The notes below the pieces were generated by a model. The model saw nothing but the letters and a program-made list of their open reading frames with translations, was not told where the DNA came from and made no database searches. DNA of 64,000 nucleotides from a virus (taxonomy: Duplodnaviria; Heunggongvirae; Uroviricota; Caudoviricetes), in the IMG/VR virus record IMGVR_UViG_2537561946_000006; one strand, given 5' to 3'. Position 1 is the first letter of the stretch. Every line of letters begins with the position of its first letter. Position numbers and translations under genes: made by a program. This document shows positions 53,424 through 53,522 of the stretch, piece by piece.

Positions 53424-53522
53424 TATTCTTCGTCAGAAGGTGGTGATTATCCATGATATTTGTGTATCGACTTTTTATAAGAGGTTTCTGGTCGGGATTA
53501 TATAAAACTGCGGACACGTCGT
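53424..53522 (+). pseudogene. 3'-terminal remnant of a pin-type invertase gene
   Basis: ~99 bp alignable with 2599-2696 (CAGAAGGTGG...TATCGAC...TATAAGA...CACGTCGTATGCAAGAAG). Confidence 0.5.

Follow-up and report, generated by a model that had tools for sequence, protein, structure and literature searches.

The window (the whole stretch of DNA analysed here, 64,000 nt) contains two elements in tandem at one tRNA-Ser att site, an e14-like element A followed by lambdoid prophage B. Prophage B has tail fibres with PF08400 and PF06820 domains, and its relatives encode gpJ and Lom. Downstream of these fibres, Pfam identifies SseK_NleB, a truncated Peptidase_M85, an OspG-like kinase (a weak match, NleH) and NleF. 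Effector genes therefore fill the interval between the tail-fibre genes and attR, the arrangement of an exchangeable effector locus, and the annotation of relatives agrees. Only nleB2 and nleF look intact among the four effector genes; nleC is truncated to its first 96 codons, and nleH (~51645–52560) is frameshifted in the prophage B family (PGAP annotation of relatives), the window retaining an open reading frame of just 191 aa at 51685–52260. Behind nleF, and ~300 bp before the tRNA-Ser attR, lies the 3′ end of a pin-type invertase gene, hereafter the stub, set between remnants of two other genes (Table 1).

Table 1. Features of the stub locus in prophage B and of the element A comparator (window coordinates)
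Feature	Coordinates	Strand	Description and basis
Left crossover (pix-type) site, element A invertible segment	278..303	-	TTCTCCCAAACCAAGGTTTTCGAGAG, inverted relative to 2036-2061
Right crossover (pix-type) site, element A	2036..2061	+	TTCTCCCAAACCAACGTTTATGAAAA; just upstream of pin
Intact pin, element A (comparator)	2116..2670	+	184 aa; Pfam Resolvase residues 3-135 and HTH_7 138-180; annotated pinE in relatives
Element A pin 3′ flank including hairpin	2671..2711	+	Homology with B stops at 2711
LEM-3-like GIY-YIG gene, element A	2734..3507	-	Pfam PF22945; inside the 971-bp interval without B counterpart
tRNA-Ser 3′ att core copy at the A/B junction	3683..3745	+	Followed by the B integrase gene (3798-4823, minus strand)
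nleF, last effector gene	52575..53144	+	Immediately upstream of the scar; Pfam NleF_casp_inhib; RefSeq annotation of 99-100% identical relatives
nleF 3′ flank, then heavily decayed 3′ end of an IS256-family (Transposase_mut) transposase gene (~53190-53360)	53145..53361	-	Left junction
pin coding remnant, PinE/Gin-type serine DNA-invertase	53362..53505	+	Codons ~138-184, HTH_7 DNA-binding domain; alignment to element A pin
pin 3′ flank remnant	53506..53558	+	53 nt, with decayed hairpin copy; alignments with A, CD45, PM4, L005, L012, L013 and L017
ykgJ-like cysteine-cluster gene, 5′ fragment	53559..53656	-	First ~91 nt of the coding sequence plus 7 nt upstream; 92.9% identical to K-12 ykgJ; right junction
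Phage arm between ykgJ′ and att core	53657..53856		From 53734 common to another lambdoid prophage at the same tRNA-Ser site
tRNA-Ser 3′ part, anticodon stem to CCA: attR core of prophage B	53857..53919	+	Not a whole tRNA gene

An earlier note on this DNA had proposed a fossil 3′ end of a pin-type gene downstream of the effectors, and comparison of the two elements bears this out: the stub has the orientation, and the place relative to attR, of the intact pin of element A. Comparison of the A and B regions by blastn aligned 53404–53532 with 2569–2696 (80.2% identity over 131 columns, E = 2.2 × 10−21), and Smith–Waterman alignment extended the block to 53362–53544 versus 2529–2711 (140 matches in 187 columns). 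The score of 178 is well above a background of 24.1 ± 3.2 from 200 shuffles (maximum of 33), which establishes the homology. The 99-bp match first noticed at 53424–53522 is real and lies inside this block, but its pairing was 10 nt out (2599 pairs with 53434 and not with 53424), and the similarity covers roughly double the length claimed.

The boundaries of the stub are well defined. Homology begins at nucleotide 414 of pin (codon 138), which is exactly the start of the HTH_7 domain (residues 138–180 of intact Pin, Pfam). The reading frame can be traced on both sides of a 2-nt insertion at 53399–53400 that frameshifts the stub, with RSYKFTPAQWSQE/GRLISSDILRQKVVIIHDICVSTFYKRFLVGII in B facing RRPKLTPEQWEQAGRLIASGVPRQKVAIIYDVGISTLYKKFPVGDK in Pin, and it ends in a TAA at 53503–53505 that aligns with the TGA of element A pin. 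Intact pin genes are followed by a hairpin with a conserved 11-bp stem (CCGCAGCACGT-loop-ACGTGCTGCGG), the arms of which are degraded in B. Comparison with PM4, L012 and L013 places the end of pin-derived sequence at ~53558; homology with PM4 and L012 runs to 53560 and gives way to ykgJ-like sequence, the pin flank (AACCTTTCG) continuing with ATAGTGCGAGTATTGAATG in PM4 and L012. Two further observations concern the flank. In L005 (~4515–4560) the hairpin loop is the reverse complement of that at other loci (TCTTGCATACG versus CGTATGCAAGA), as if the palindrome had flipped, and a 40-nt match to the pin flank (window 2672–2711) lies near the right end of K-12 Rac (L018 8733–8772, 85%).

Both joints of the stub cut into other genes. 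On the left, 53100–53360 matches the sequence that follows nleF in O157:H7 (alignment score of 278), in which PGAP annotates an IS256-family transposase pseudogene and the translation matches PF00872 at positions 327–377 of 379 (E = 4.8 × 10−10); this alignment, the annotation and the Pfam match identify the joint at 53361/53362 as one between a transposase interior and a pin interior. On the right, the ykgJ-like fragment is called a YkgJ-family pseudogene in relatives (PGAP). In strain M3, a lambdoid prophage that occupies this tRNA-Ser site has an intact ykgJ-like gene as its last gene, then the same arm and att core, and no pin (the M3 prophage, L006, matches 53552–54214 at 91%; 53734–54214 matches L007 at 93%). 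Because ykgJ is intact there, the joint at 53558/53559 connects the pin flank to the interior of ykgJ. At least two illegitimate joints are needed, since the left one lies inside the IS256 remnant and the right one cuts the ykgJ-like gene. A pin gene would thus have lost its catalytic part, its HTH end being joined leftward to the interior of the IS256-family gene by an illegitimate event, and its flank would have been joined rightward to the interior of the phage ykgJ-like gene by an illegitimate deletion or recombination. The stub sits within the cargo interval that separates the tail-fibre genes of lambdoid prophage B from its tRNA-Ser attR.

Other prophage sequences derived from ykgJ/ecpE are reported to serve as secondary attB sites (PMC8112680). 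The fragment described here was rejected as the ‘attB-in-prophage’ sequence of that study, as it covers the start of the ykgJ coding sequence and not the ykgJ–ecpE intergenic region. A ykgJ-derived fragment (87% identity) also occurs near the right end of many records of Stx1- and Stx2-converting phages.

The second block of similarity between A and B (53857–53935 versus 3683–3760, 91% identity, blastn) is the 3′ part of tRNA-Ser, the att core of both elements. Positions 53858–53935 match annotated tRNA-Ser genes at 100%; ARAGORN found no complete tRNA at 53857–53919, and the window has no complete tRNA-Ser gene. The A-side core departs from the B-side core and the genuine tRNA at one compensatory pair within the stem of the variable arm (GTGGGG...CTCCAC versus GTAGGG...CTCTAC). 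In O145, E110019, A25 and ESBL 15 the chromosome beyond attR is yodB/zinT–msrQP, which is the serU neighbourhood of K-12. Beyond 54197 the window instead has an AraC-family regulator, an IS3-type remnant, a LysR pseudogene and paoD (54198–56000), as does CD45, and not the canonical yodB–zinT of O145, E110019 and ESBL 15; in strain GF75 an A-like element alone adjoins the same AraC gene. These neighbours imply either that the lineage has undergone a rearrangement or that its insertion context differs.

From pin flank to att core, the two elements have unrelated sequences of 971 bp (A) and 312 bp (B). The GIY-YIG gene of element A, which the earlier note had described as simply absent from B, has no homologue there by blastn or tblastn, but the difference is a replacement and not a clean insertion or deletion. 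Among the slots compared (window 2712–3682 and loci L003, L012, L015, L016 and L150), the interval between pin and attR holds a LEM-3-like GIY-YIG gene in A and CD45, mcrA in K-12 e14 and phage 689R6, an AAA-ATPase/McrC pair in PM4 and dinI in L012. In GF75 it holds an unnamed gene with the size, strand and position of the GIY-YIG gene of A and CD45. The slot appears to be a variable site for cargo or defence genes, with a different gene in almost every element.

We examined the distribution of the stub using the block 53238–53560: of 5426 complete E. coli genomes, 110 carry it in full, at 95–100% identity. Carrier strains include O145:H28 RM9872 and O103:H2 12009. In all five genome contexts opened, nleF lies upstream of the stub and ykgJ′ and attR lie downstream. 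A 29-mer spanning the junction of the IS remnant and pin′ was found in 5 viral and 9 metagenomic contigs, arranged as in the window as far as each extends. The block is fixed in this form, and its high identity across the 110 genomes is explained by the recent spread of one prophage family. No PGAP feature is annotated at the stub locus in the relatives opened. The search of complete E. coli genomes and the 14 junction-bearing viral and metagenomic contigs yielded no intermediate form, that is, neither an intact pin beside an intact ykgJ at the att site nor nleF–IS′–pin′ with another right side; the order of events is for this reason one that we infer.

The pin allele of the stub is distinctive. 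It is 75–81% identical to every pin in the 5426 complete E. coli genomes (81% being the maximum), with values of 76% for K-12 pinE and 80% for element A pin, and the phage collection yielded one invertase, 77% identical. The nearest allele (79–81%), a pseudo-pin, belongs to an e14-type locus that PM4-like strains have at icd; this allele has in common with the stub an unusual coding end, -(R/G)II before the stop, and a flank type. The end of the stub (-GII) and its flank follow the type of PM4, L012 and L013 and not that of element A, the flank of which diverges directly after the hairpin. The stub was therefore not copied from element A pin, given its maximum of 81% identity to any pin and the different flank type of A. 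A protein search with the PM4-type C terminus found no full-length parent; it returned 84 short fragments consisting of HTH_7 only (28–90 aa) from E. coli, Salmonella, Enterobacter and Citrobacter, and HTH-only pin stubs are thus common. A scan of genome contigs for the 17-mer GGATTATATAAAACTGC gave unrelated taxa only, among the matches listed. The pinR gene of Rac was rejected as a relative of the stub, as the two have no DNA similarity.

In PM4-like strains (L003, NZ_CP074001, strain PM4), downstream of Rac trkG and an IS5 come tail-fibre remnants, an acyltransferase gene split by IS1, a decayed pinE-type gene, a McrBC-like pair and the icd′ end of e14, an arrangement that suggests a fusion or rearrangement of Rac and e14.

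These data leave practically no probability for chance similarity, or for a recent copy of, or gene conversion from, the pin of element A. The proximity of A and B in the window is all that would favour such an origin, and it is refuted by the shuffle score, the allele identities and the distribution in 110 genomes: the stub is just 80% identical to the pin of A and has another type of flank, and every one of the 110 genomes with the block has an identical stub, whereas A and B in tandem, as one continuous stretch, were found in CD45 alone.

Several lines of evidence establish that the stub has decayed. Its pN/pS is 0.66–0.72 against six intact alleles (a rough estimate, as only 46 codons are available) and its substitutions are spread evenly over codon positions (12/11/12). 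Among themselves, the intact alleles mostly have values of 0.06–0.28 and an excess of third-position changes, at a synonymous divergence similar to that of the stub. Residues that are invariant in intact alleles have changed (GRRPK to RSYKF, AIIY to VIIH and G(V/I)STLY to CVSTFY). The conceptual stub peptide has no Pfam match at E ≤ 0.01, and tblastn with full Pin against prophage B matched residues 152–182 only. The resolvase catalytic domain (PF00239, with the active-site serine) is absent from the stub, the sequence upstream being the IS256-family remnant. Nor is the C-terminal HTH_7 domain intact, owing to the frameshift, the sub-threshold Pfam score and the replacement of conserved residues. 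No pix-type crossover site occurs anywhere in prophage B. In characterized invertases a Fis-dependent recombinational enhancer lies within the 5′ part of the gene; as the stub has lost the first 413 nt of the gene, the enhancer must have gone with them.

A remaining function for the stub is very improbable. It might encode a small HTH protein, serve nleH–nleF as a regulatory element or as a terminator, or provide a homology anchor for the exchange of cargo cassettes, and a 38-aa open reading frame (MVSGEG...GII, from an ATG at 53389) does run to the ancestral stop. The strong conservation of the block in the 110 genomes and the widespread HTH-only fragments, annotated as proteins, point in the same direction. 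However, this frame scores 13 bits against HTH_7, for which the cut-off is 23.8 bits, and the pN/pS of ~0.7 is accompanied by the loss of conserved DNA-contact residues. We found no promoter and no Rfam family over the stub; the one terminator-like match (53392–53407) is at the level of shuffled sequences, in which 0.9 are expected. The degraded hairpin of the flank also argues against a function, and in two diverged relatives (93–97% identical overall) the stub is conserved no better than the adjacent junk. At a maximum of 81% identity to other pin genes, it would be a poor substrate for homologous exchange.

A substitution pattern of relaxed selection, and homology that keeps frame, stop and 3′ flank in register with those of intact genes, mark the stub as a non-functional pseudogene fragment, certainly derived from a Pin-type invertase gene. 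We consider it probable (roughly 85%) that what survives here is the 3′ stub of a PinE/Gin-type invertase gene, dead and decaying neutrally, left as a scar of at least two illegitimate events. Part of its divergence could predate inactivation, because no intact allele closer than 81% was found.

This pin may have belonged to the phage lineage of prophage B itself, or it may have been supplied by a donor (an e14-like element using that att site, for instance). The joints, the alleles and the relatives do not separate these two histories, which come out about equally probable. The earlier note had held that B once had the same invertible module as A. This is not borne out: the stub is only 75–81% identical to every pin of the complete E. 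coli genomes, it has the PM4-type end and flank, and the fibres of B are lambdoid. We sought alternative fibre C termini and an inverted tfa in prophage B, and it has no invertible tail-fibre segment of the G/C/P type; tblastn with the tail, tfa and tfa′ proteins of A gave only a weak 29-aa match at 51350–51436 (plus strand, E = 0.008). The companion claim, that the effector cassette replaced the module, is not supported either. The joints lie inside the IS256 remnant and ykgJ, and no effector gene takes part in one; B has neither a crossover site nor its own stf′/tfa′, and a donor origin is equally possible.

The effector locus itself is mosaic. Direct repeats of 46 bp (49846–49890 and 51539–51583; 89% identical) bracket a 1.66-kb block (49882–51538) that contains nleB2, the truncated nleC (96 aa) and a fragment of a tail-fibre-assembly gene (tfa′) at ~51335–51445. 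Simpler relatives (E110019, L136, L138 and L146) have the order tail fibre–nleH–nleF–pin′–ykgJ′–attR, with a single repeat copy and without the block, which was therefore gained or lost by recombination at the repeats. The tfa′ fragment cannot be counted as a relic of a module of B, because it lies inside this block.

It is possible, although we lean against it, that an ancestor of prophage B had an invertible tail-fibre segment with pin before attR, and that this segment, together with codons 1–137 of pin, was lost through deletions after nleH–nleF (with an IS) had arrived. In orientation and position the stub matches pin of element A and of e14-type elements, where pin is the last gene before cargo and attR. 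In a Rac-like lambdoid prophage with the order stfR–tfa–serine acetyltransferase–pin′ stub–dinI–attR, a pinE-type stub likewise comes after a lambdoid tail-fibre gene that has the same N-terminal domain, and in Rac a recombinase gene directly follows stfR–tfaR near attR. Against a pin native to B stand the lack of crossover sites and of inverted stf′/tfa′ remains of its own, the confinement of its only tfa′ to the block that simpler relatives do not have, and the absence of pin from related lambdoid prophages at the same att site (M3 and MLI109). The Rac gene, pinR, is moreover unrelated to the stub at the DNA level. Finally, all of the intact pinE-type genes that we opened (A, CD45, L005, K-12 e14, phage vB_EcoM-689R6, L149 and L150) are in myovirus-like baseplate modules, and none is in a lambdoid prophage.

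The stub may instead have come from a donor, for example an e14-like element at the same tRNA-Ser att site, through collapse of a tandem array or illegitimate recombination, and have never served the fibres of B; we hold this as a tentative account, at somewhat under even odds. Tandem A–B arrays do exist at the att site, in the window and in strain CD45, the allele nearest to the stub belongs to an e14-type locus (the pseudo-pin at icd), e14/Mu-like modules were the only setting in which intact pinE-type genes were seen, and illegitimate joints bound the stub on both sides. The right-hand sequences (ykgJ′, arm and core) are nevertheless those of lambdoid prophages of this site, so that an import needs a second joint too and is no more parsimonious than loss in place, and no donor with a matching allele was found.

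Element A, the comparator, has an anomaly of its own within its invertible segment, an exact 34-bp wild-type loxP site at 1990–2023 (0 mismatches, with none expected by chance). The site and ~5 extra bases replace ~180 bp of a gp53-like gene for an alternative tail-fibre C terminus, and the uninterrupted sequence at this position is present in more than 460 complete E. coli genomes. The window has no FRT or I-SceI site elsewhere. The loxP looks like a scar of Cre/lox engineering or an edited sequence.

Set against the known invertases (Pin, Gin, Cin and Hin), and specifically the pinE and invertible P segment of K-12 e14, the stub corresponds by homology to the final 47 codons plus the 3′ flank, with the same orientation and the same place before attR-proximal cargo. 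It differs in being the HTH region alone, frameshifted and decayed, with no catalytic domain, crossover sites or invertible segment. We compared it with two stubs that were chosen because they are annotated as HTH-only (L012 and L013), in NZ_OX030701 (a Rac-like prophage at prfC) and NZ_CM129037 (an e14-like element at dacD); PGAP calls them ‘helix-turn-helix domain-containing protein’. All three are 3′ remnants of pinE-type genes that start within 13 nt of one another at the start of the HTH domain (pin nucleotides 414, 425 and 427), and each is preceded by a cargo gene, with tail-fibre assembly genes upstream. The two comparison stubs are young, with a largely intact frame (one internal stop) and scores to intact pin of 245 and 273, versus 178 for B at comparable lengths, and they adjoin a serine acetyltransferase gene; the stub of B is old, diverged and unannotated and lies behind T3SS effector genes. 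The pinH pseudogene of K-12 is a further example of an HTH-only invertase stub. We make no claim of a single truncation event or a hot spot for the three stubs, as the breakpoints differ and the upstream sequences are unrelated save for ~20 nt of weak similarity.

Stubs occur behind nleF in B, behind serine acetyltransferase genes in two other prophages and behind an acyltransferase gene in PM4. That the cargo slot between tail fibres and attR was ancestrally an invertible host-range segment with pin, in many enterobacterial prophages, seems unlikely. If it were so, HTH-only pin stubs would mark a general route by which host-range switches became effector or defence cargo loci.

Exchangeable effector loci have been described in lambdoid prophages of EHEC and EPEC (PMC8112680 and work cited there). 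The stub lies inside such a locus, with nleB2, nleC′, nleH and nleF between the tail fibres and attR, and the mosaicism, IS remnants and truncated genes seen here are typical of these loci. It is a passive component, outside any exchange mechanism that has been demonstrated. A literature search found no description of an invertase remnant in an effector locus.

The stub is an ordinary scar of prophage mosaicism, from a known gene family in a known kind of locus. It shows that a Pin-type invertase gene was once in the ancestry of the right-arm DNA of prophage B, an arm that is a patchwork, assembled through illegitimate joints, of a tail-fibre end, effector genes, an IS remnant, an invertase stub, a truncated ykgJ and att. 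It points to no new mechanism; it refines the picture of how exchangeable effector loci are assembled, provides annotation with a precisely delimited pseudogene that has so far gone unannotated, and can be used as a lineage marker for this prophage family, which is represented in 110 of the 5426 complete E. coli genomes.
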